The notes under the pieces were generated by a model. It was not told the origin of the DNA and made no database searches. It was given only the letters and a program-made list of their open reading frames with translations. Positions 3,356 to 13,651 of a DNA stretch of 64,000 nucleotides are shown here, piece by piece. Position 1 is the stretch's first letter, and the number at the start of each line of letters is the position of its first letter. Source of the stretch: Promethearchaeati archaeon SRVP18_Atabeyarchaeia-1. Lineage in GTDB: Archaea > Asgardarchaeota > Atabeyarchaeia > Atabeyarchaeales > Atabeyarchaeaceae. The translations under genes were made by a program, and so were the position numbers. Where the stretch lies: NCBI GenBank assembly GCA_037308085.1, contig CP147779.1, positions 1,248,001 to 1,312,000 on the forward strand, given 5' to 3'.

Positions 3356-3742
3356 ATGTCTCAAATCATCGTAGACGGCGGCGATCTTGCAAAGTCTAAG
3401 GGCGACTCGATGGCAAGATTAGCCGAGTTCTTGAACGGCATTCGTTCGCTCAAGGTACAGGCCAAAGTAGGTGGAAAGGGAATAACAATAACGCCGAAAG
3501 AGGCAACGGCAAAAGCCCCAACCAGGAAAGGATCGAAAAAGAAAGGCAAAAAGGCCTCTGGGGCGGAGACGGCGACCGCGGTCATCTCGAAGACTAAACT
3601 GAAAGTATACCTGAAGAGATTCATCAACAAGGAGGGGCTTAGTGACGGGATGAGGGTCATCTCCAGTGGACCTGACGGCTTCACTTTCCATGAGAAACCG
3701 ATACTCGGAGAACAACTCGCGCCTTTGGAGGGAGAAGAGTGA
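3356..3742 (+). CDS. rpl22e: Ribosomal protein eL22 (L22e) homolog
   Basis: ISKTKLKVYLKRFINKEGLSDGMRVISSG resembles the eukaryotic eL22 core ([27 protein letters not shown]); basic protein; GAGGAGTGA RBS. Confidence 0.75.
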   Translation: MSQIIVDGGDLAKSKGDSMARLAEFLNGIRSLKVQAKVGGKGITITPKEATAKAPTRKGSKKKGKKASGAETATAVISKTKLKVYLKRFINKEGLSDGMRVISSGPDGFTFHEKPILGEQLAPLEGEE

Positions 3743-3821
3743 AAACCTGCTCTGGCATAAAGGGCGGGTTCCTCAATCCTCCTTTTCTGATTCTCAGTCA
3801 GACAAGTTGAAAGCTTATTAG

Positions 3822-3945
3822 AGTTCTGTTACCTCTGCGGCTGATAACCGTTTAGGTCAACTTCTCCGCTTTGGCTCATAGCCTTGTTGAAGGGACTAAT
3901 CACTGCTACACGTGCGGAGCGATCCAGGGTGAACCGCACCCTTTC
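3822..3945 (-). ncRNA. Putative omega-RNA scaffold overlapping the tnpB 3' end
   Basis: GGGTG-CGGTT-CACCC hairpin, CTCCGC...GCGGAG long-range stem and a terminal hairpin using the TIR. Same architecture as 12433-12565. Overlap with the tnpB 3' end is typical of TnpB omega-RNAs. Confidence 0.6.
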
Positions 3946-5058
3946 ATCTTGGGCTTTAAGCATGTTCAGACAAGCATTTACATGTCGATCTATTCCGCAG
4001 CATTCTAGGGTTTTCGCTTTCGGGTCTCGCATGATACACCCACACACCGCGCATACCCTAGAAGTGTTCCAAGGACTCACTTTGACGGCTTTGACTCCTT
4101 CCCAGAGAGCCTTGTACTCGATGAAGCCTTGTAGCCTGTGGAAGCTCCACGAGTTCAGCCTCCGCTTCAGCCTCTTGGAGCGCACGCTGATCATCTGGAC
4201 CTTCCCGTTGAAACTGTTGACGCCTAGTGCTTTCCTGTTGATTGCCCTGCGGATGTGTCTAAGGTCTTCGAGAATAATGCCTTGCCCTCTGTTCTTCGCT
4301 TGCCTAACTATTGCTGAACTCACCTGATGCAGCATCGTGTTGACTTTGTTGTTCTGGTTAGCGAACCATCTTCTCTGGATCTTCGTCGCCACCCGCCTAT
4401 CCTTAGCGTACTTGGATTGAGCTCTCCGCACCCGCTCAAAGTACCCTTGCCTAGCCTCTGAAACTCCTGACAAGTCGTGGCTTTCAACAGCCAGTTCTCC
4501 GCCTTCTCTTACGTAGGCTCCATCTATTGAGCGTTCATTCGTGTCGTACGCCACGTAGCTCCCTGGTTCGGTAATCTCAGCGGTCTTCGAGAAAACCACT
4601 GAAACCGTGGAAGCAGTCAAGGTCACTGAGCCTAACTTGAGCGCGGCGTCTGATAGGAACTGTGCCGCCCTCTTGTGGAGGGGGACGTAGAAGTACTCTC
4701 TGGGCTTGATCGGTATTCTCAGCTTGCCGTCAACGACCTTGTAGGCTTGGTTTCCCAGTTTAGCCGTGAGCTTCGTAGCTCTCGGCACTCGAGCGTTCTG
4801 GCGCCTTCTCCTCTTCGCTTTCCGGTAGTTCTTCAGGATGGCGGTGGCAGCCTCTGTGGCTGAGAGGCTGTACCAGGTGTGGAGACCGAAACCACTTAGC
4901 TGGTGGTAGACCTCGCTTTGCAGGCTGAACCTCGAGGTCACATTCTTCTCCAGGCCGACGCGGATGCAGCAGTTAACCATGGTTCTGAAGGTTTCTAGTA
5001 GGCTGAGAACACGACTTGTAGGCTCGTACGGTATCTGCACCGCTTTAATTGCCTGCAT
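3829..5058 (-). CDS. tnpB: TnpB RNA-guided endonuclease homolog (RuvC-III Asp reads His)
   Basis: RuvC-I YVAYDTNE, RuvC-II IILEDL, W..SF..LQ..IEYKA, TSRVCAVCG Zn finger, DRHVNACLN. Likely start ATG 5058, about 25 bp below a TTTAAATA box. Confidence 0.9.
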   Translation of the reverse strand: MQAIKAVQIPYEPTSRVLSLLETFRTMVNCCIRVGLEKNVTSRFSLQSEVYHQLSGFGLHTWYSLSATEAATAILKNYRKAKRRRRQNARVPRATKLTAKLGNQAYKVVDGKLRIPIKPREYFYVPLHKRAAQFLSDAALKLGSVTLTASTVSVVFSKTAEITEPGSYVAYDTNERSIDGAYVREGGELAVESHDLSGVSEARQGYFERVRRAQSKYAKDRRVATKIQRRWFANQNNKVNTMLHQVSSAIVRQAKNRGQGIILEDLRHIRRAINRKALGVNSFNGKVQMISVRSKRLKRRLNSWSFHRLQGFIEYKALWEGVKAVKVSPWNTSRVCAVCGCIMRDPKAKTLECCGIDRHVNACLNMLKAQDERVRFTLDRSARVAVISPFNKAMSQSGEVDLNGYQPQR

Positions 5059-5237
5059 AAAACCAAATAAGCCAAAAATCTTATTTAAACTCACCAACCG
5101 CAGAGGTAACAGATCCCTTATTAGGTAGGATTGTAAGATCACAGCATGCTCCTAGATACGCGCGACGCATCTAGGCTTGCTAGAGGAGCCGTGTCGGGGA
5201 AGCGCACTCTGATGGCTACTCGGAAGAGGCGATTCAC

Positions 5238-6032
5238 TTGCCAAAGGTAAAATGCAATGACATAAACATCTGTTATGAGGTTCAAGGTAAGGGGTATCCG
5301 CTTGTAATGATAATGGGGCTATCCGCCAACATGGACTGGTGGGATCCAAAGCTAATCGAGGAAACCTCGAGGAAATACAAGATAGCCATCTTCGATAATC
5401 GTGGCGCCGGGCGCACCGACGCACCCAAGATTGACTATTCCATCAAGATGTTCGCCGACGACACAGCAAAACTAATGGACAACCTGAAGATACAGAAAGC
5501 ACACGTACTCGGCATCTCAATGGGGGGAATGATAGCACAGGAATTCGCTCTTACCTATCCACAGAGAGTTGAGAAGCTCGTCCTCTGCTCAACTAGCTGC
5601 GGAGGGATCAAATCAGTGCCTCCAGCACCCAAAATAATGAGCGTCTTAAGTGGCGGTGGAGCAAGGACACCAGAGGACCTGGTAAAGAATACTATCCCAG
5701 TCCTCTTCACTGAAGACTTCATTAAAGGCAATCCTGCCTTCATAAAAGTGGTAACTGAGCGACTTATGAAGGCGCCAATTGCGCTCGACGCGTATATGCG
5801 ACAAGTAAAAGCGATTATGGCGTGGGACACGTACGCTCGGCTTCCGAAGATCAAAGCGCCCGCGTTAGTGATGCACGGTAAGAAAGATATTCTTGTTCCT
5901 CCAGAGAACGCTAAGATCCTAGCTGATAGAATACCAGGGGCAAAGCTTGCATACTTCGATAATAGCGCACATGCACTTTTCTCGCAGGAAACTGACAAGG
6001 TGATCAGCACTCTGCTTCAATTTCTTGCATGA
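5238..6032 (+). CDS. Alpha/beta-fold hydrolase
   Basis: GISMGG nucleophile elbow, FDNRGAGRT, HGKKD, catalytic His in SAH. Confidence 0.9.
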   Translation: MPKVKCNDINICYEVQGKGYPLVMIMGLSANMDWWDPKLIEETSRKYKIAIFDNRGAGRTDAPKIDYSIKMFADDTAKLMDNLKIQKAHVLGISMGGMIAQEFALTYPQRVEKLVLCSTSCGGIKSVPPAPKIMSVLSGGGARTPEDLVKNTIPVLFTEDFIKGNPAFIKVVTERLMKAPIALDAYMRQVKAIMAWDTYARLPKIKAPALVMHGKKDILVPPENAKILADRIPGAKLAYFDNSAHALFSQETDKVISTLLQFLA

Positions 6033-6036
6033 CTAC

Positions 6037-7002
6037 CGCTCTGTTAACTCTTCGGGTGACAGTTGGTGCCGTTAGCTTCTCGGCCGTATGGTGGCCTTAT
6101 TAGTCGAAGTACCCCCTTTTTCGGGCAAGCAGGCGGTCAAAGCCGTCAAGCAGAGCTACACGCCACCAACCGAACTACTCAGCCTCCTAGACGAGTTCAG
6201 AAAGATGGTGAACGACTGCATACAAATCGGTCTGGCTGAGAATGTTACGTCGATGAAGGCGCTCTCAAAGAAAGCATACCGTGAACTCGCACGATACGAC
6301 GCGCCAACCTACTACCGTCTGACTGCGATTAGTAAAGCTACCGGGATCCTTCGGAATTATGGGCACGCGCTGAGGAAGCTGCAGAGGGTGAAGAAGCCCT
6401 ATGCAACAAGGCTCATGCTCACTGACTGCTACGGCTTCAAGATAATTAATGGCGAACTCAGACTGCCCATCAGGGCAAGAGAGTACATCCATGTTCCGCT
6501 GAACGCCTACACGTTGCAGTCTATTGAGGGTTCGACTGTCCGTTCAGTCTGCTTGAGCGCCTCCGCCCTGTCATTAGCTTTCTCGAAGGAGGTTACTCAG
6601 GCTGAGCCTGCGGGTCTAATCGGGGTAGACCGCAACCTCGACAACGTAACCGCTGCATCCTCAAACGAAGGTGTGAGGAGGTATAACCTGTCAAGGGCAA
6701 CCGATATCAAGGAGAACTGCAGGCAGGCCAAGCGGGGTTTCAAGCGAGGCGATTGCCGAGTCATGAAGCAGCTCTACTCCAAATATGGGCGAATCCAGAG
6801 GAACAAGGTAAACTGGATACTGCACAACACCTCAGCAAGCATAGTGGAGCAGGCGAAGGAGAAACAGTTCGGCATAGTCATGGAGGACATCAAGGGCATC
6901 CGAAAACTCTACAGGAAGGGAAACTGGCAGGGCAAGGACTACAGGGCGAGGATGGAGCAGATGCCACCCAGCTAACTCTTCAACCGAAGAGTTAACAGAA
7001 CC
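6037..7002 (+). mobile_element. Internally deleted TnpB element with IS6-like TIRs (element 2)
   Basis: 19/20 IR: TCTGTTAACTCTTCGGGTGA (6040-6059) vs TCAACCGAAGAGTTAACAGA (6980-6999). Right end reads GGTTCTGTT on the minus strand. Degenerate flanking repeat CATGACTAC/CACGAGTAC (7/9). Confidence 0.8.
6088..6975 (+). pseudogene. tnpB: Truncated tnpB (RuvC-I and RuvC-II present; Zn finger and RuvC-III deleted)
   Basis: GVDRNLDN and IVMEDIKGIRK; N-terminus paralogous to element-1 TnpB. After RARM the ORF runs directly into the last ~46 nt of the omega-RNA/TIR. Confidence 0.8.
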
Positions 7003-7246
7003 CACGAGTACTCTCCTTTTTCTTTTGATCTGAAGCAGACGAATCCATCGTCGAACTCAAGTTCACATGTTTTGATGGCGGTATTACGCTGATCGTCTCA
7101 GTAGACGATCCAGAACATACTAGCCTTGGAAAGGGATAAAAGTGCCGCGAACTCATTGATGTGTTAAGCATGGTAGGAGATGTCTTCGGCAAAGTATCAC
7201 GTGGGGGCGGTCACTGAAGTCCACGGAGTAAGAAGAGGTAGTCGAC

Positions 7247-7747
7247 ATGACAAAAGAAGTTAAGGTACTCATTACGGGTCCCTATCGAGTAGGAAAGTCA
7301 ACCCTAGTCAGATCGATGACTAGTGGAAGGGCCATTAACATAGATCGACGCGGCACAACGGTATGCATGGACTACGGCTACATCGACCTCGACGGGATCA
7401 GACTTCACCTCTTCGGAACACCGGGACAAGAAAGATTTGCCATCATACGGGAAGTACTCTCCACGGGCATGAGAATATTGGTCATGGTAATAGACTCGAC
7501 GAAACCAGACTCCATCGCGCAGGCAAAGAAGATCTTCGGTCAGCTAGCAATGAAAGATGTTCCGTGCATAATAGCCGCCAACAAGCAGGATTGCCCAGGC
7601 GCAATGACCCCCGCAGAAGTCCAGAGAACGATAAACCTTCGAATCCCGACTGTGGGCACTTCGGCAGTCTCAAGAGGCGGTGCACAACAGTTACTCGCAG
7701 AGATGTACAAAGCCGCTCTGAAAGTCCCAGCTTCACTTATGTCCTAG
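7247..7747 (+). CDS. MglA-like small GTPase
   Basis: GPYRVGKS, TTVCMDYG, LFGTPGQERF, ANKQD, TSA. Confidence 0.85.
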   Translation: MTKEVKVLITGPYRVGKSTLVRSMTSGRAINIDRRGTTVCMDYGYIDLDGIRLHLFGTPGQERFAIIREVLSTGMRILVMVIDSTKPDSIAQAKKIFGQLAMKDVPCIIAANKQDCPGAMTPAEVQRTINLRIPTVGTSAVSRGGAQQLLAEMYKAALKVPASLMS

Positions 7748-7831
7748 GGAGCCGACAAGGAGCGCTTCCTATCTCTTTCTTCTGGAGCAGTGGCAAGCGG
7801 GAATCGCAACCAGAGGATTTGATTGCCACGG

Positions 7832-8578
7832 TCATTCCGTCTTCAGGCGTATTCCCGTGCTGGCAATCTCATACTCGACGGGTTTGAGACTGTGCGTGGT
7901 TCCACGCATTTTCAGGATCTCAATATAGCGCTTTCTTTCCTCAGTGCCTTCACTCATGGTTCTCAGAGATATCACGCCATCTGTAAGGAACGAGTCAAAC
8001 CCGAGTGGAACCCTGTGTTCAAGGCCCTGCACATTCTCTGATGTTAGGAGCGCCGTGACAAGGGCAGCGCCCAGAGTCCTGATGATCGTGGTGATGTCGT
8101 ACCGCGTCTCGAACGGGTCCTTCCTACTCTGCGCAAAAGGAGTTACAGAGTCTATAACTACCCTCTTAGCATTGATCTCCATGATGTTCTTGTTTATCAC
8201 AGAGATTAGTTCCCCAACGTGAAATCCCTTCGCACCTAGCGCAGTCTCGTCTCCAGGGATAGCATAAGTCATCTCGCGATCAACAACAACCCTAACTGGG
8301 CTCACGTCGAGAACACGCAGCGAACCCTCAGCATCACACTTCGCCAGGTCGAATCCAAGCTCCTTCGCATTCTCAAAGAGTATCTCCTTGGGCTCCTCCA
8401 TAAGAGTGACGAGAACACCATTCTCCTTATGGTTGACTATCCCATCCAGCAAGAACTGCAGACCAAAGGTCGTCTTACCAGACCCAGGATCCCCCGACAC
8501 CAGAATAGATCTACCCTTCGGATAGCCGCCATCAATTAGCTCATCAAGTCCCGGTACACCTGTTGAAACCCGCTCCAA
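7832..8578 (-). CDS. Single-domain KaiC/RAD55-like ATPase
   Basis: STGVPGLDELIDGG, Walker A GDPGSGKT, EE, Walker B VVIDS, LKMRG. Confidence 0.9.
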   Translation of the reverse strand: MERVSTGVPGLDELIDGGYPKGRSILVSGDPGSGKTTFGLQFLLDGIVNHKENGVLVTLMEEPKEILFENAKELGFDLAKCDAEGSLRVLDVSPVRVVVDREMTYAIPGDETALGAKGFHVGELISVINKNIMEINAKRVVIDSVTPFAQSRKDPFETRYDITTIIRTLGAALVTALLTSENVQGLEHRVPLGFDSFLTDGVISLRTMSEGTEERKRYIEILKMRGTTHSLKPVEYEIASTGIRLKTE

Positions 8579-8918
8579 CTAGACGCAACCCCCACAACCG
8601 ACGATAGAAGCGACGAAAAGATCGTTGCAGACATTAACACTAGGTAATTCATTAGTGACACCGATTATTTATGGGTTTCCTAAATCGGGATCGGGATCAT
8701 TTCCTTCTTCTTAATCCAAAATGTGCAACGCCTACTGAAAACCAGCTGCCACTGTACGTGGTAATTGCAGACTCATGCGGCCAATAACGGAATACGAATA
8801 AAGGATCAGAACCCGCAAACATGGAGGCCCGTTTCTAATTCAAGCTCGGACGACAGGAAATTGGGGAAAAAAAAGGAGGGGATTAGACTTTTCTTAGCGG
8901 AATTGCGCAGCAATCAGC

Positions 8919-10499
8919 CTACTTTATACTGACAGCCTTGGAACCAGACCTTTTTCGCATGAACATCAGACCAGCAACAACAATGATGGCACCCAGTGCA
9001 CTGACAATCAACAGCATCGTTGGTAGGCCGGATGGACTAGTTAGAGGCGACAACTCCACAGTGTAGGTATACGCTGGGTCGTCACACACATATAGCACGC
9101 CAGTCGCGGACCAGTATTGTGTCGCGTTCACTGGTGTCCTTGTCCCACTATCGACTTTCCAAACGGCCTTGACAGTGTACCCATCAGGAACTGCAAGTTT
9201 GAAGTACACCCAGTCTCCGAGAGATACCTTCGACAAGGTAACGTTGCGGATGCCGCCAGTGCCAGTCACTGCACCCGTGTGATCCACGAGTTGATCGGGC
9301 TCGCCAGTTCCATTGGTCGCAAAGTCAGGGACCCCATCCCAGCCATAGTCGACGAAGAACATTGTGCTACCGCCAAAGTGAGTGCTACCCTGTGCGCCAC
9401 CCCCGGTGACATCAATCTGATGGGCATAGCTGCCGTAGTAGACTATAACACCGACCTTCTTCCACACAATCGTTGCGTTCTCAGGAACCTGTATTTCATA
9501 CGTGTTCAATGACCATTGTCCACCACTGTCCGCAGTCTTGACTTCCCAGTTACTTGTAACCGCGAGTCCAAGGTAAAGTCCAAGCTCAGCAAAGACGTTG
9601 ATATCATACTGAATGTTGACATACATATGAAGCGCATCGCTGTAGCCACTGATGCCCCCATGCCCAACTACTGCAAAGTCGACTACCAGGTCAATGAATC
9701 CTCCCGCCATCAGGAGGATGTTGTCAGGCGAGGTTCCACTTGTCTTCCATACGTCAATTTTGCCAACACATTTCACAACATTGAAACCGCCTTGGATTCC
9801 AGGTATGTTAAGATCCTGGAGTGCTGTGGATACCTTACTCCATACCGAATTGAGTGCGCCTTGTATTCTGTTTCGTAGCCAAGCGCTGAAATCCCACTGA
9901 ACATGGTTTACAACGTAGTTTGTTCCTGTCCATGTGTCATTTGCGTCTGTGAACTTAATCGTCAGAGGATTGGCGCTACCAGTATGAGTGACAGGGTCTA
10001 CGCTCTCAATTGCTGGGAACGGAATACTGAAGTTCTTCGTGGTTCCTGTCGGAATAAGCCATTTGGCGTCCCAACTTGTGCTAGAATTCCACTTATTGTA
10101 GAACACATTCGCTGTGCCATTCACGTCAATGTTTACGTCGATCACCAGCATCGCATTGACAGCAATGGTTGCCGTGACAATTCCTGTTGACGTGCTAACG
10201 TTTATGTCATGGGCCGCAACTGATATCTTGGCACCTATGTACAGCTTGTTGACGTTGATGCTGTAGGAATGGAAACCAGCAATGTTTGTAGTGATGATAA
10301 CGTGTCCTGACGCGTTGATCCAGGCCATGAGAGTCCCGTTTACGTCATACAAGAGTGATCCAGGGATGGTCATAGCCATTTGCCGTTGAGGTGCCGCCTC
10401 ATTCTGCTGTGTCGAAGTTGCTGTCGCTGGAGATGCGAACGCTGCTGTTGTCGCTAGAATTGCGATGAAGAGTGCTGCGAAGATAGCTTTACCATTCAA
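8919..10499 (-). CDS. Secreted, C-terminally anchored beta-rich surface (glyco)protein
   Basis: Signal peptide after likely TTG start at 10499 (GGGGAG upstream), many N-x-S/T sequons, C-terminal TM followed by RKR. Confidence 0.75.
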   Translation of the reverse strand: MNGKAIFAALFIAILATTAAFASPATATSTQQNEAAPQRQMAMTIPGSLLYDVNGTLMAWINASGHVIITTNIAGFHSYSINVNKLYIGAKISVAAHDINVSTSTGIVTATIAVNAMLVIDVNIDVNGTANVFYNKWNSSTSWDAKWLIPTGTTKNFSIPFPAIESVDPVTHTGSANPLTIKFTDANDTWTGTNYVVNHVQWDFSAWLRNRIQGALNSVWSKVSTALQDLNIPGIQGGFNVVKCVGKIDVWKTSGTSPDNILLMAGGFIDLVVDFAVVGHGGISGYSDALHMYVNIQYDINVFAELGLYLGLAVTSNWEVKTADSGGQWSLNTYEIQVPENATIVWKKVGVIVYYGSYAHQIDVTGGGAQGSTHFGGSTMFFVDYGWDGVPDFATNGTGEPDQLVDHTGAVTGTGGIRNVTLSKVSLGDWVYFKLAVPDGYTVKAVWKVDSGTRTPVNATQYWSATGVLYVCDDPAYTYTVELSPLTSPSGLPTMLLIVSALGAIIVVAGLMFMRKRSGSKAVSIK

Positions 10500-10600
10500 A
10501 TGCTTTATCTCCCCACATTTCCATTTTGTTTCGCGTTGATCCCACTGTATGCCCACCGTCGCTTAAAAATGTTGAGGACGTAATCGGTGTATGAAGAATG

Positions 10601-10676
10601 TATATAAATGTATATTTTTAGAATAATGGCTATTTTGTGTGGCAAAGACTGCTGTAAAATATATATAAATGTATAT
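10601..10676. promoter_or_regulatory. Two copies of quasi-palindromic 15-mer TATATAAATGTATAT
   Basis: Exact direct repeat at 10601-10615 and 10662-10676 in the divergent intergenic region. Confidence 0.55.
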
Positions 10677-11026
10677 CTGATATGACTTGGGAATGTTAGA
10701 TCCCTAATGGAAAAGCTGTCTGAGAGTGGGGAGTGAGGTGGAGAACTTGGGTAATTTCCTGCCCGTAGAAGGACATCTCAGCCCCAAGCCCCAAGATGAT
10801 GCAGACCAACGGTAGGCTGGACGTAGAAGCTGCGGAACGTCGAAGCCGATAAGATATTTAACGTGAAGGCGAATGATGTACATCTCTCATGAAGACGCAC
10901 CTAACATCAGGCATCACACACCTGAGTATCCAGAGAGAATGCATTGCGTCACAAGTTGGCAGAGTTGCACACGAATTTCCTGAAAAGAGTTATTGGGTCA
11001 GAAATTCCCGATGAGATGCTCAGCGT

Positions 11027-11635
11027 ATGGAGAAGAGCTATAGTCCGCGCGAGGCTGCAGCCATACTTGGCGTTGCAGTGCACACCATTCAAGTATGGGA
11101 CAGACAGGGCAAGATACGCTGCGTCAGGCTACCTTCTGGCCGGAGGCGTGTTCCCGAGAGCGAGGTTAGACGCCTCCTGAACGTAAAGGAGGAGAGGAAA
11201 GACGCAATATATGCGAGGGTTTTCTCCAGCAACCAGAAGGGAGAACTCGAGAGGCAGGTAAGCTTACTGAAAGAATTGGCGCCCAGCGCGGTAGTGTACA
11301 CCGATGTTAGATCTGGCTTGAATTTCAAGAGGAAAGGATTATTCCAGCTTCTAGAGGATCTCGTCGACAGGAAGATCGCCAGACTCTTCATTGCGCACGA
11401 AGACAGGCTTGCAAGGATCGGATATGAGCTCATATCATGGTTGTGCGAGAAATACGGCACAGAGATAATCGTCGCAGAGAAGGAGGTAAATCCTTCTCTC
11501 CGACAAGAGTATGGCAAGGATATGATTGCACTCAACATGGCATTTTCGGCGAAGCTTTTCGGGTTGAGGAGTCATAATACAGCTAGGATTCTTCGAGCTG
11601 TAAAGGACGCCATAGCCGAAACGAGGTCTTCTTGA
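11027..11635 (+). CDS. tnpA: IS607-family serine recombinase TnpA (MerR-type HTH + resolvase), probably inactive, no tnpB partner
   Basis: YSPREAAAILGV...WDRQGKI HTH; YARVFSSNQKGELERQ, SGLNFKRKG, EDRLARIG, FSAKLFGLRSH. Confidence 0.85.
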   Translation: MEKSYSPREAAAILGVAVHTIQVWDRQGKIRCVRLPSGRRRVPESEVRRLLNVKEERKDAIYARVFSSNQKGELERQVSLLKELAPSAVVYTDVRSGLNFKRKGLFQLLEDLVDRKIARLFIAHEDRLARIGYELISWLCEKYGTEIIVAEKEVNPSLRQEYGKDMIALNMAFSAKLFGLRSHNTARILRAVKDAIAETRSS

Positions 11636-11703
11636 ATCGGAGATGAAGGTGCGATTCGCCAAGCCAGGATTATTCATAATGTGGGAGGGGGAATGCTAGA
11701 TAT

Positions 11704-12387
11704 ATGAGAATTTTCGCATCACGCAAGGTTAGGATGGAGGCTATCGAAGATTCTGGCGTGGCAACGTCGTTTGACCGTATAACCGGCATGCCTCAGTTTG
11801 GGCTTCTCCTGCGGCTATTTACCTTGAAGGCGCTCAGCAGTCAGAGTGGCGGTAGAGTCATTGACATCGGTTGCGGCGGAGGGCGACTTGTCCTCAGGCT
11901 TGCGAAAAGTTATCCCTTTGAAGAAGTCATCGGTCTGGACCTGTCTGACAAGATGCTGAGGCTAGCTAGAAGGAGGGCGATAGATGCAGGTCTCGGTGAT
12001 CGAGTCAAGTTCAAGGAGGGGAACGCGGAAATGATCCCATACCCCAGCGGATCGTTTGATCTGGTTGTGAGCACTCTGTCCTTGCATCACTGGTCGAGAC
12101 CAGAGCTTGTCTTCGATGAGATTGCGCGGGTTCTTAGGCCTGCGGGAAAGTGTGTGTTGGGAGACATGCGCAGAGATCCCATGCCCGTATTCACGGGGCT
12201 TATGTGGGTTGTAACGCATTTCATAGTTCCACGCTCTCTGAGGCGCGCAGGAGAGCCTCTTGGGTCTCTGCAGTCAGCATACACGAAGGAGGAGACCTCT
12301 GCCTTTTTGCAGAAGTCCAAACTCGGAGCCTTCAGCAAGGTCACAACGGGACCATTCTGGCTAATCATCAAAGGAAGAAAAATGTGA
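11704..12387 (+). CDS. Class I SAM-dependent methyltransferase
   Basis: VIDIGCGGG, GLDLS, GNAEMIPYPSGSFDLVVS, SLHHW, LRPAG. Confidence 0.9.
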   Translation: MRIFASRKVRMEAIEDSGVATSFDRITGMPQFGLLLRLFTLKALSSQSGGRVIDIGCGGGRLVLRLAKSYPFEEVIGLDLSDKMLRLARRRAIDAGLGDRVKFKEGNAEMIPYPSGSFDLVVSTLSLHHWSRPELVFDEIARVLRPAGKCVLGDMRRDPMPVFTGLMWVVTHFIVPRSLRRAGEPLGSLQSAYTKEETSAFLQKSKLGAFSKVTTGPFWLIIKGRKM

Positions 12388-12432
12388 TGCGCGTAGCAGA
12401 ACAGGCGGGTTGAAGTAGATACTCTATCTCAA

Positions 12433-12565
12433 GGTTCTGTCAAGTCTTCGGTTGATGACTCGACTGACTCGCATCGACTTTCAGGATTACCTTTCCTTCC
12501 GTTCCGAGGGTTCCTGTACCATCGCTTCACCTGCGAGTCCCTTCAGGCCGAACCACAGCCCTGCA
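12433..12565 (-). ncRNA. Stand-alone putative TnpB omega-RNA
   Basis: CAGGGCTG-TGGTT-CGGCCTG hairpin, perfect GACTCGCA/TGCGAGTC stem, terminal CGAGTC...GACTTG hairpin. 3' end colinear with the end of element 2. Confidence 0.65.
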
Positions 12566-12701
12566 CCTGCTTCCACGTCTACACAGGTTCTCTCTTTCCC
12601 CTCCGCCTTCAGCTATAAAGCCACATACCGCGGAGCGAGAAGACTCTTAGACTCACTACCCCGTTCCCAACATATAAATCAACCATAGACTTTGCAGAGC
12701 C
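12433..12701 (-). mobile_element. 269-bp MITE with IS6-like TIRs carrying only a putative omega-RNA (element 3)
   Basis: Ends GGTTCTGTCAAGTCTTCGGTTG and (reverse complement) GGCTCTGCAAAGTCTATGGTTG match at 17/22. TSD TATCTCAA (12425-12432) / TATTTCAA (12702-12709). TTTATA box just inside the upstream end. Confidence 0.8.
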
Positions 12702-12976
12702 TATTTCAACAAAGAATTTATATAGAAGTATGATTCGCCTTCTAGGAAGGATGAATATTACCATAAGGTAACAAATAGCGTTGTCTCCACTGCTTAGAGA
12801 CAGCGTTGAACTGACTCTATTTAGGGACTCGGCATAATCTGAACTTGTCACTAAAGTCAACTCTAAACCAGCAAGTTGTCTTGCCCTTAACGATGGGACA
12901 TGTCATGTCGGAGGCGTTGACGGGTTTGGCGTCTCACAAGGATCAGCGTAGCACTTCAGGCAAGGAAAAGACCAAG

Positions 12977-13651
12977 ATGCTAGGCGAGGCATCTGAGGAG
13001 ACAAACACGCCGGAAGCCAGTGAAGCGCCAAGAGAGGAACAGAGCGCAACACCGACGACGCCGATCGCAGATCCCATGGAAAACGAACTAGAATTATTGC
13101 GGAAATCACTTCAGGAGGAAAAGGATAGAGCGGAACAATACCTTGTTTCGCTCAAGTACCTGAAAGCTGAATTCGAGAACTATCAGAAGAGATCCGCAAA
13201 GGAAATGGATGAACTCGCCAAGAGGGGAAGCGAGAGGCTTGCCCGAAAGCTGCTCGGAATCGTGGATGACATCGAGAGAACAATTAATGCATGCAAGGCT
13301 GTAGGCGACCAGAGCAAGCTGCTCGCTGGCGTCGAGATGATCCTAAAAGAACTCGTCAATACCCTCAGAAGCGAGGGAATATTCAAGATAGAGGCAGTCG
13401 GCAAGAGGTTTGATCCTCAACTTCACGAAGCTATCATGGTGAAGAAGACAGACGAATGTCCTCCTGGCACTGTGGTTGAGGAGTTGAGAGCCGGCTACAT
13501 GTTTGATGGCAGAGTCATTAGGCCAAGCATGGTAACGGTGGCAAATCCGCCTGACCGGCAAGGCAGTCCTGAGCCAGAAAACAAGGTGAAAGGTGGGGGA
13601 GGGCAGAGGACAAGCAGTGGTGTTGACAAACGACCCCTCCACGAAACATAG
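12977..13651 (+). CDS. grpE: Nucleotide exchange factor GrpE
   Basis: AEFENYQKR, FDPQLHEA, GYMFDGRVIRPSMVTV. Start uncertain (ORF open from 12845). Confidence 0.95.
   Translation: MLGEASEETNTPEASEAPREEQSATPTTPIADPMENELELLRKSLQEEKDRAEQYLVSLKYLKAEFENYQKRSAKEMDELAKRGSERLARKLLGIVDDIERTINACKAVGDQSKLLAGVEMILKELVNTLRSEGIFKIEAVGKRFDPQLHEAIMVKKTDECPPGTVVEELRAGYMFDGRVIRPSMVTVANPPDRQGSPEPENKVKGGGGQRTSSGVDKRPLHET

Follow-up and report, generated by a model that had tools for sequence, protein, structure and literature searches.

The genome of Promethearchaeati archaeon SRVP18_Atabeyarchaeia-1 holds a 269-bp mobile element without a gene, located between a methyltransferase gene (window 11704-12387, plus strand) and grpE (window 12845-13651, plus strand). 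Here we describe this element, including its ends, its copies elsewhere in the genome, its internal RNA fold, and its relationship to elements that encode the RNA-guided nuclease TnpB. The window is the whole 64-kb stretch analysed, positions 1248001-1312000 of a single-contig genome of 2.81 Mb; coordinates marked "genome" refer to the whole contig. All elements are oriented along tnpB, which corresponds to the window minus strand, and have a left end (LE) and a right end (RE). A preliminary description of this DNA had proposed a 269-bp element with terminal inverted repeats and a target-site duplication matching at 7/8 positions, and all three are present (12433-12701, or 12425-12709 with the duplications; Table 1). 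The RE and LE repeats agree at 18 of their 23 positions.

Table 1. Coordinates of the element, its parts and related features (window positions unless marked as genome or gene; ωRNA, omega RNA; TAM, target-adjacent motif; MITE, miniature inverted-repeat transposable element).
Feature	Position	Strand	Description
Element	12433-12701		269 bp; 23-bp inverted ends and 8-bp target duplication
RE terminal inverted repeat	12433-12455		GGTTCTGTCAAGTCTTCGGTTGA; IS6-like, with GG tip and CTGT core
LE terminal inverted repeat	12679-12701		Reads inward GGCTCTGCAAAGTCTATGGTTGA
Target-site duplication, RE-side	12425-12432		TATCTCAA; 7/8 match to 12702-12709
Target-site duplication, LE-side	12702-12709		TATTTCAA; 7/8 match to 12425-12432
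Predicted guide	12413-12432	-	TTGAGATAGAGTATCTACTT; first 8 nt are the RE-side duplication; directly 3' of the scaffold
Candidate TAM	12710-12714	-	CTTTG; TTG abuts the duplication
TnpB ωRNA scaffold	12433-12567	-	Predicted fold and covariation
GGUUC-loop hairpin	12545-12561	-	Scaffold part
Long-range stem	12532-12541 with 12466-12473	-	GGGACUCGCA with UGCGAGUC; scaffold part; encloses two inner helices
Terminal hairpin	12439-12464	-	Scaffold part; includes the RE repeat
MITE-specific junction	12568-12612	-	LE-derived part meets ωRNA part; homologous in 7/7 copies
TATA-like box 2	12613-12620	-	CTTTATAG; aligns with GGCTTTATTAGCC ~30 nt upstream of the tnpB ATG in T1808, T1697 and T899
TATA-like box 1	12672-12679	-	ATTTATAT; inner edge of the LE repeat; kept in 7/7 copies
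Full-length siblings	genome 2198749, 673143, 2205592, 868840, 537694, 1526452		Found by BLAST
Transposase, 383 aa	gene 549899-551059		SWIM and zinc-ribbon N-terminal parts; in 6.55-kb element 549276-555829
Transposase, 251 aa	gene 615506-616282		In 4.4-kb element 614149-618567
Metatranscriptome contig, exact, 264 nt	12299-12561	unstranded	Spans the RE and the scaffold as far as hairpin 1, with 134 nt of flank

A BLAST search of the same genome returned six other full-length copies at 72-90% identity, along with four partial matches that cover the first 135 nt alone, each directly 3' of a tnpB gene. The seven full-length copies are 257-269 bp long and all intergenic, and their RE repeats are 93% identical. 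Duplications of 8 bp flank five of the seven: three exact, with gagttaag and tcatgtga among the exact (8/8) sibling pairs, one with a mismatch (the window copy), and one with an indel (copy M1526). No reading frame is conserved among the seven copies, with 2-5 stops in each sense frame, which bears out the earlier view that the element has no credible open reading frame (ORF).

Two related genomes, G001 from the same genus and G002 from the same family, contain empty sites. In both, the methyltransferase-grpE spacer is colinear with the window minus the element and one copy of the duplication; the G002 interval between flanking matches is 281 nt shorter than that of the window, and intergenic identity to these outgroups is ~75-80%. 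Because the G001 empty site has a C at the mismatched duplication position, as in the RE-side copy, this copy looks ancestral and the LE-side copy appears to be the changed one. Given the siblings, the duplication, and the empty sites, the element is a real insertion and is mobile. It is short and non-coding, with inverted ends, a target duplication, dispersed copies, insertion polymorphism, and ends like those of transposase-encoding elements in this genome, and we therefore classify it as a MITE.

The window copy lies upstream of, and 15 bp from, the TTTATATA box of the grpE-dnaK operon (window 12710-12724). This box is kept before grpE in all three genomes (the host, G001, and G002), and the insertion swaps out the upstream promoter context of this heat-shock operon.

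Descent from tnpB elements and the RNA fold

Three 1.26-kb tnpB elements (genome 1808115-1809377, 1697571-1698831, and 899438-900695) have 3' ends that align base for base with the final 135 nt of the MITE. Identity between the scaffold and tnpB-element 3' ends is 73-80%, for the elements at genome 1808115, 1698702, 899438, and 763485. Closer by, the MITE has the layout of the 3' tail of the tnpB element at window 3822-5116, with hairpin, stem, and hairpin in the same order, and is colinear with the last ~48 nt of a truncated element at window 6037-7002. The preliminary description had noted both resemblances for a structured part of ~130 nt, and both stand. At its other side, the MITE shares a GGCTTTAT(T)AGC box with the 1.26-kb tnpB elements, where the box lies ~30 nt upstream of the ATG. 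A single TTTATA box had been described earlier; a TATA-like box is indeed present, but the minus strand has two rather than one. Box 1 occupies the position of the TTTAAAT box in tnpB elements of the T1251/T655 type.

Based on these alignments, the MITE is a core-deleted derivative of a tnpB element that retained both ends, the promoter region, and the last ~135 nt. The 45-nt junction at 12568-12612 has no counterpart in the tnpB elements. Since all seven copies are colinear through it, they stem from one deletion event and diversified as MITEs afterward.

Three intact tnpB genes of the cognate type are present in the genome. In the intact element at 1808115-1809377, the tnpB ORF ends 7 nt from the RE, and the scaffold is embedded in the last ~45 tnpB codons. 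The encoded TnpB retains the RuvC D/E/D motifs (VGVDRN, IVMEDIRG, VDRDENGALN) and a CxxC...CxxC zinc finger, and it matches TnpB and Cas12f structures distantly. Since the MITE is gene-less and these genes lie elsewhere, the idea in the preliminary description of a TnpB supplied from another locus fits the genome well.

Other internal-deletion derivatives of tnpB elements have both ends and occur as single copies: window 6037-7002 (966 bp), genome 763237-763617 (381 bp), and genome 2135115-2135847 (733 bp). The 381-bp derivative retains the zinc-finger tail and the full ωRNA and represents an intermediate stage toward the MITE. The TnpB zinc-finger domain PF07282 is found in at least 40 stretches over the curated cut-off in this 2.8-Mb genome, compared to three Y1 TnpA genes and two IS6-type transposase genes.

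We aligned 15 RE regions, comprising the seven MITEs, four tnpB-linked regions from the host genome, and four from G001 and G002. The consensus fold has 27 pairs. Pairing is kept in 99% of the 405 cells, compared to 23-44% when the partners are slid by 1-3 columns, and in nine pairs both partners have changed. Covariation scores 0.41, compared to 0.04-0.10 for the slid controls, and none of 500 shuffles reached the observed value. An alignment of the seven MITEs alone gave 99.5% pairing and five double-change pairs (e.g., CUCGCA/UGCGAG, CUUGCA/UGCAAG, and GUAGCA/UGCUAC), with a covariation score of 0.31 versus 0.04-0.07 for controls. Between MITE subfamilies, identity is 77% in the ωRNA body, 94% in the RE repeat, and 57% in the 5' interior. 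Because the MITE-only covariation persists despite this drift of the 5' interior, selection has kept the RNA fold after tnpB was lost. The tnpB strand of the fold also contains frequent G-U pairs, which suggest a structure at the RNA rather than the DNA level.

A covariance model (R1) built on this fold scores the window scaffold at 152.9 bits and has 11 strong matches in the genome, namely the seven MITEs and the four tnpB-linked regions. Another twelve matches, weak but full-length, mark the RE ends of elements of family B, a second tnpB family that has window 3822-5116 among its members. A covariance model and a genome-wide count of copies were among the checks named in the preliminary description; with covariation support and six full-length siblings, the element is not a decay product without siblings. 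Covariation, siblings, and insertion polymorphism also agree with its description there as a mobile, protein-free guide-RNA cassette. One further match of intermediate strength (genome 2751921-2752055, E 2e-10) has a degenerate RE end and tnpB coding remnants upstream, and is probably a decayed element of a third subfamily.

Contigs from one small wetland metatranscriptome (run X1; unstranded, assembled, depth ~3) cross the RE-flank junction of two copies. One is the exact match to the window copy, and a second includes 139 nt of flank and the RE tip of the sibling at genome 673143, which has no ORF of ≥100 aa within 500 bp. We regard these contigs as a weak hint of transcription only. Runs X5, X8, and X9 yielded no contig on this stretch, which counts neither for nor against transcription. 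Position 12561 was considered as an RNA 5' end and rejected, as the contig ends probably arise from repeat-induced breaks.

IS6-type ends and the transposition system

Approximately 20 elements in the genome, including the MITEs and elements of families A and B, share one type of end together with 8-bp direct repeats, many of them exact. Family-A elements of G001 and G002 have the same end type and 8-bp repeats. The end motifs, GGTTCTGTCAAG at the RE and GGCTCTGCAAAG at the LE, fit the GG tip and the cTGTt (and caaa) motif of IS6, a family with 8-bp target duplications and ends that combine a GG tip with a cTGTt core (PMC7986276). The preliminary description was silent on the transposition system; the ends and the duplication are IS6-like rather than IS200/IS605- or IS607-like.

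Two genes in the genome (549899-551059 and 615506-616282) encode transposases with a PF13610 (IS6/IS240-type) domain, at E-values of 8e-18 and 2.5e-17. The element around the first has ~52-bp inverted ends and an exact TGGAGAAC duplication, and the element around the second has 64-bp inverted ends and a 7/8 duplication. Their ends read GGTTCTGTTAA(C/G)..GGGTGAT and GGTTCTGTTACCTCTGCGGTTGAT, with tips almost identical to the tips of the MITE and the tnpB elements. Transposase and tnpB never occur in the same element. From the match of ends and duplication, the MITE is probably mobilised by an IS6-type DDE transposase encoded elsewhere in the genome. We also considered a Y1 TnpA as the mobiliser, as three PF01797 genes are present, but inverted ends and 8-bp duplications do not fit its mechanism.

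The two large IS6-type elements carry cargo that includes a 997-aa ORF and an aspartyl-protease-like ORF, and are unusually large for IS6. A right end close to 551 kb was ruled out for the first, whose partner end lies at 555829. A further 299-bp element at genome 2346131-2346429 has IS6-like ends and an exact TTGAGATC duplication, and has no match to the ωRNA covariance model. Its interior of ~235 bp belongs to another repeat, of which the genome contains at least 11 copies (80-97% identity). This looks like one small element inside another, the outer one being a minimal IS6-type MITE.

Among 40 related genomes searched, the full MITE was not found; the ωRNA part alone occurs in G001 and G002, and G001 is fragmented, so that copies are possibly unassembled. 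Of the six strong or intermediate covariance-model matches in G001 and G002, five come after an ORF of 391-424 aa, and no short MITE-like element contains any of the six. TnpB relatives at 42-59% identity in other archaeal phyla also have GGTTCTGTT... inverted ends (L072 and L073 from a Bathyarchaeia metagenome-assembled genome, and L079 from a Nitrososphaerota one), and L073 has an exact 8-bp duplication preceded by TTTG. With such relatives in other phyla, the design of tnpB on IS6-like ends is widespread in soil archaea.

The flank motif and the predicted guides

Of 19 elements, 12 have TTA or TTG (TTR) abutting the LE-side duplication on its 5' side, compared to 0.5 expected from the genome frequency of 2.8% per position (binomial P ~1e-14). 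At the mirrored position beyond the RE-side duplication, it is found in 2 of 19. Family A, to which the ωRNA of the MITE belongs, and the MITEs have mostly TTG and family B mostly TTA, with near-identical tips in both families. For the MITE flanks, 4 of 7 have TTG strictly, and 6 of 7 when a 1-nt offset of the duplication is allowed. TTG is also present in three of four family-A elements of G001 and G002, and the Bathyarchaeia relatives with the same ends (n = 2) have one TTG and one TTA. At the empty sites, the motif would be immediately 5' of the 8 bp and flank that are read as guide, a geometry that we checked on real empty sites. Since the motif follows the RNA and nuclease family and not the ends, we interpret it as a TAM, and not as a preference of the transposase for certain targets.

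With this 8-bp duplication, the first 8 nt of the predicted MITE guide are duplicated sequence, and the length of one duplication separates the TAM from the LE. The flank that is read must differ from copy to copy, as the preliminary description had anticipated in proposing a new guide with every insertion. The RE itself ends in ACC, which is not a TAM, and this would provide self-avoidance. With up to one mismatch, the window guide has one match in the genome, its own flank, preceded by GAACC, again not a TAM. No second genomic match with ≤1 mismatch over the first 16 nt was found for the guides of the seven MITEs and three intact relatives. Other matches have at least two mismatches and are scattered, mostly without TTR in front. 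Because second matches are lacking and TTR is at the TAM position of the empty site, the guides look aimed at each copy's own unoccupied allele, that is, at selfish homing.

Where the two copies of a duplication differ by one base, the difference is at central position 4 or 5 in six of eight pairs (post-hoc binomial P ~0.004). Examples include the window copy and the elements at genome 234279, 644510, 1171598, 1808115, 2173232. This may reflect better survival of direct repeats broken at the centre, or relief from TnpB seed binding beside the LE promoter.

Proposed mechanism and its meaning

Taken together, we consider it fairly probable that this is a doubly non-autonomous MITE, in which an IS6-type transposase moves the element, and the element's RNA brings in a TnpB, in trans, that cuts the empty allele. 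Its origin would be one internal deletion in a tnpB-only element that removed tnpB and spared the ends, the promoter region, and the ωRNA scaffold. An IS6-type DDE transposase from elsewhere in the genome would then recognise the 23-bp ends and insert the MITE with an 8-bp duplication. Minus-strand transcription would start at one or both internal TATA boxes and run through the scaffold and out over the RE, so that flank sequence (the duplication and what lies beyond it) forms the guide at the end of the resulting RNA. TnpB from one of the three intact related elements would bind this RNA, and the complex would recognise TTG next to the guide match (TTGAGATAGAGTATCT for the window copy) and cut. 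Such a match would exist only at the same site when unoccupied, on another chromosome copy or on incoming DNA, and repair from the occupied copy would spread or retain the MITE. In this model, the points where transcription starts and stops, the loading of TnpB in trans, the cleavage, and the homing are inferred steps. The broader claim, that RNA-guided homing has here been reduced to a 269-bp RNA-only parasite needing two trans factors from unlinked loci, with movement provided by an IS6-type DDE transposase and gene drive by TnpB, is more tentative and falls just short of an even call.

Several points weigh against this model. A recognisable duplication is absent from two of the seven copies, M2198 and M673; we considered flank exchange between copies as the cause, and no matching half-sites were seen. 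The flank motif is absent from one copy (M2198), and TATA-like box 2 is degenerate in two (M868 and M537). The single-sequence fold is unexceptional (z = -1.6), so the fold is supported by covariation and not by single-sequence folding, and Rfam 15, a library that lacks this ωRNA type, has no match at E ≤1 in window 3500-13200. Residual DNA, or read-through transcription of the convergent methyltransferase gene (11704-12387), could account for the X1 contigs. The one-sided motif may come from an orientation-specific target preference of the transposase. The full MITE was found in only one of the three genomes of the family. Lastly, IS6-family transposition is described as replicative (PMC7986276), so the restoration of an excised copy, as a rationale for TnpB, is not directly applicable, and a gene-drive role has to be assumed.

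Of the other explanations, the MITE as an inert deletion remnant, whose ends alone are acted on by the IS6-type transposase and whose ωRNA-like part is a functionless leftover, seems unlikely. Decay is common in this genome, as the one-off 381-, 733-, and 966-bp tnpB deletion derivatives indicate, and the evidence for transcription is weak. A transposase needs merely ~20-bp ends, however, and a leftover would not be expected to keep its pairs with compensatory changes and an ωRNA body better conserved than the 5' interior, or a one-sided TTG in its flanks. The structure might instead serve another role, such as a subterminal cis site for transposition, a stable RNA or terminator for neighbouring genes, or a TnpB decoy. 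The terminal hairpin does overlap the RE repeat, and all copies are intergenic, with the window copy so close upstream of the conserved grpE TATA box. We nevertheless regard this as improbable: the fold and its invariant loop nucleotides recur in the ωRNA of intact tnpB elements from three genomes, the G-U pairs make a DNA-level structure unlikely, and the TAM-like motif would be left without a role, as a decoy needs no TAM in its flank. The dispersed repertoire of trans-acting guides favoured in the preliminary description, a library sending TnpB to other loci for regulation or defence, would suit the different flank-derived guide of each copy and a TnpB that must act in trans, but is very improbable given that no guide has a second match, that the TTR fits each copy's own empty site, and that the cognate TnpBs keep their catalytic residues, unlike domesticated regulators.

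The proposed RNA-only MITE shares features with several known systems. Palindrome-associated transposable elements (PATEs) "often encode ωRNAs", and these have to be used in trans, by TnpBs that other elements encode (Meers et al. 2023, doi 10.1101/2023.03.14.532601). Like the window MITE, they are protein-free, core-deleted tnpB derivatives that retain both ends and the ωRNA. However, PATEs were defined in Haloquadratum by the absence of inverted ends and of a duplication (PMC3119063); they lack inverted terminal repeats and are moved by Y1 TnpA via subterminal palindromes, whereas the window MITE combines inverted ends of 23 bp with an 8-bp duplication and has an IS6-type DDE transposase as its probable partner. 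PATEs also insert directly 3' of the TAM, while here the duplication separates the TTR from the LE.

TnpB has been linked to DDE transposases before. In the parts consulted, Altae-Tran et al. (2023, PNAS, PMC10691335) describe DDE-associated TnpB branches with inverted repeats, naming IS630, and solo tnpBs with the same ends. Their TnpBs are likewise found in elements with terminal inverted repeats, with the tnpB 3' end ≤250 bp from the element end and solo tnpBs bounded by the ends of transposase-bearing relatives. Those parts do not name IS6 or describe gene-less, ωRNA-only derivatives, and in the present genome transposase and tnpB are in separate elements. A 2026 review lists ISL2, IS630, and IS1031 as TnpB-associated and does not name IS6 (PMC13565253). 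For IS6, two MITEs of 227 and 336 bp and one member with a passenger gene are on record (Varani et al. 2021, PMC7986276). The window MITE resembles these in its 8-bp duplication, GG tip, and cTGTt core, but that review reports no RNA-guided-nuclease cargo or guide RNA, and the transposases here differ in their extra N-terminal SWIM and zinc-ribbon parts and in their 4.4-6.5-kb cargo-bearing elements. Fanzor, the eukaryotic TnpB, is also an RNA-guided nuclease in DDE elements with inverted repeats and target duplications, and its guide and TAM must accommodate the duplication (PMC13565253). There, the duplication is short, sequence-specific, and read as part of the TAM (PMC13565253), in contrast to the present 8-bp duplication, which has no sequence preference and starts the guide, with the TTR outside it.

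We found no description of an IS6-type, duplication-making, RNA-only derivative in the accessible parts of the literature. The main text of a paper on Atabeyarchaeia mobile elements (PMC11529989) does not mention TnpB, MITEs, or IS6, and a paper on circular archaeal ωRNA (PMC12558985) does not mention MITEs or PATEs. The window MITE works like an ωRNA-bearing PATE yet belongs to the IS6-type MITEs.

What is understood of TnpB biology comes from elements of the IS200/IS605 and IS607 types, where excision is scarless, insertion occurs beside the TAM, and the nuclease restores the excised copy. The same guide-RNA logic appears here on IS6-like ends, with an 8-bp duplication and movement described as replicative. 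Because a gene-less derivative kept its RNA fold and a TAM-side motif through long divergence, our results suggest that the guide RNA alone is a unit of selection, and that, even where nothing is excised, TnpB is beneficial as a drive. The MITE may also be of practical use. From a hard-to-study archaeal lineage, it provides a compact natural ωRNA of ~135 nt, a likely TTG TAM, and a cognate nuclease of ~390 aa, and the three-part system of transposase, nuclease, and RNA-only element could be rebuilt in a model host. If the proposed mechanism is true, the TAM would be imposed by selection after insertion rather than by the target choice of the transposase, and TnpB would benefit elements whose replicative movement empties no donor site, as a drive that operates between the chromosome copies or the cells of an Asgard archaeon.

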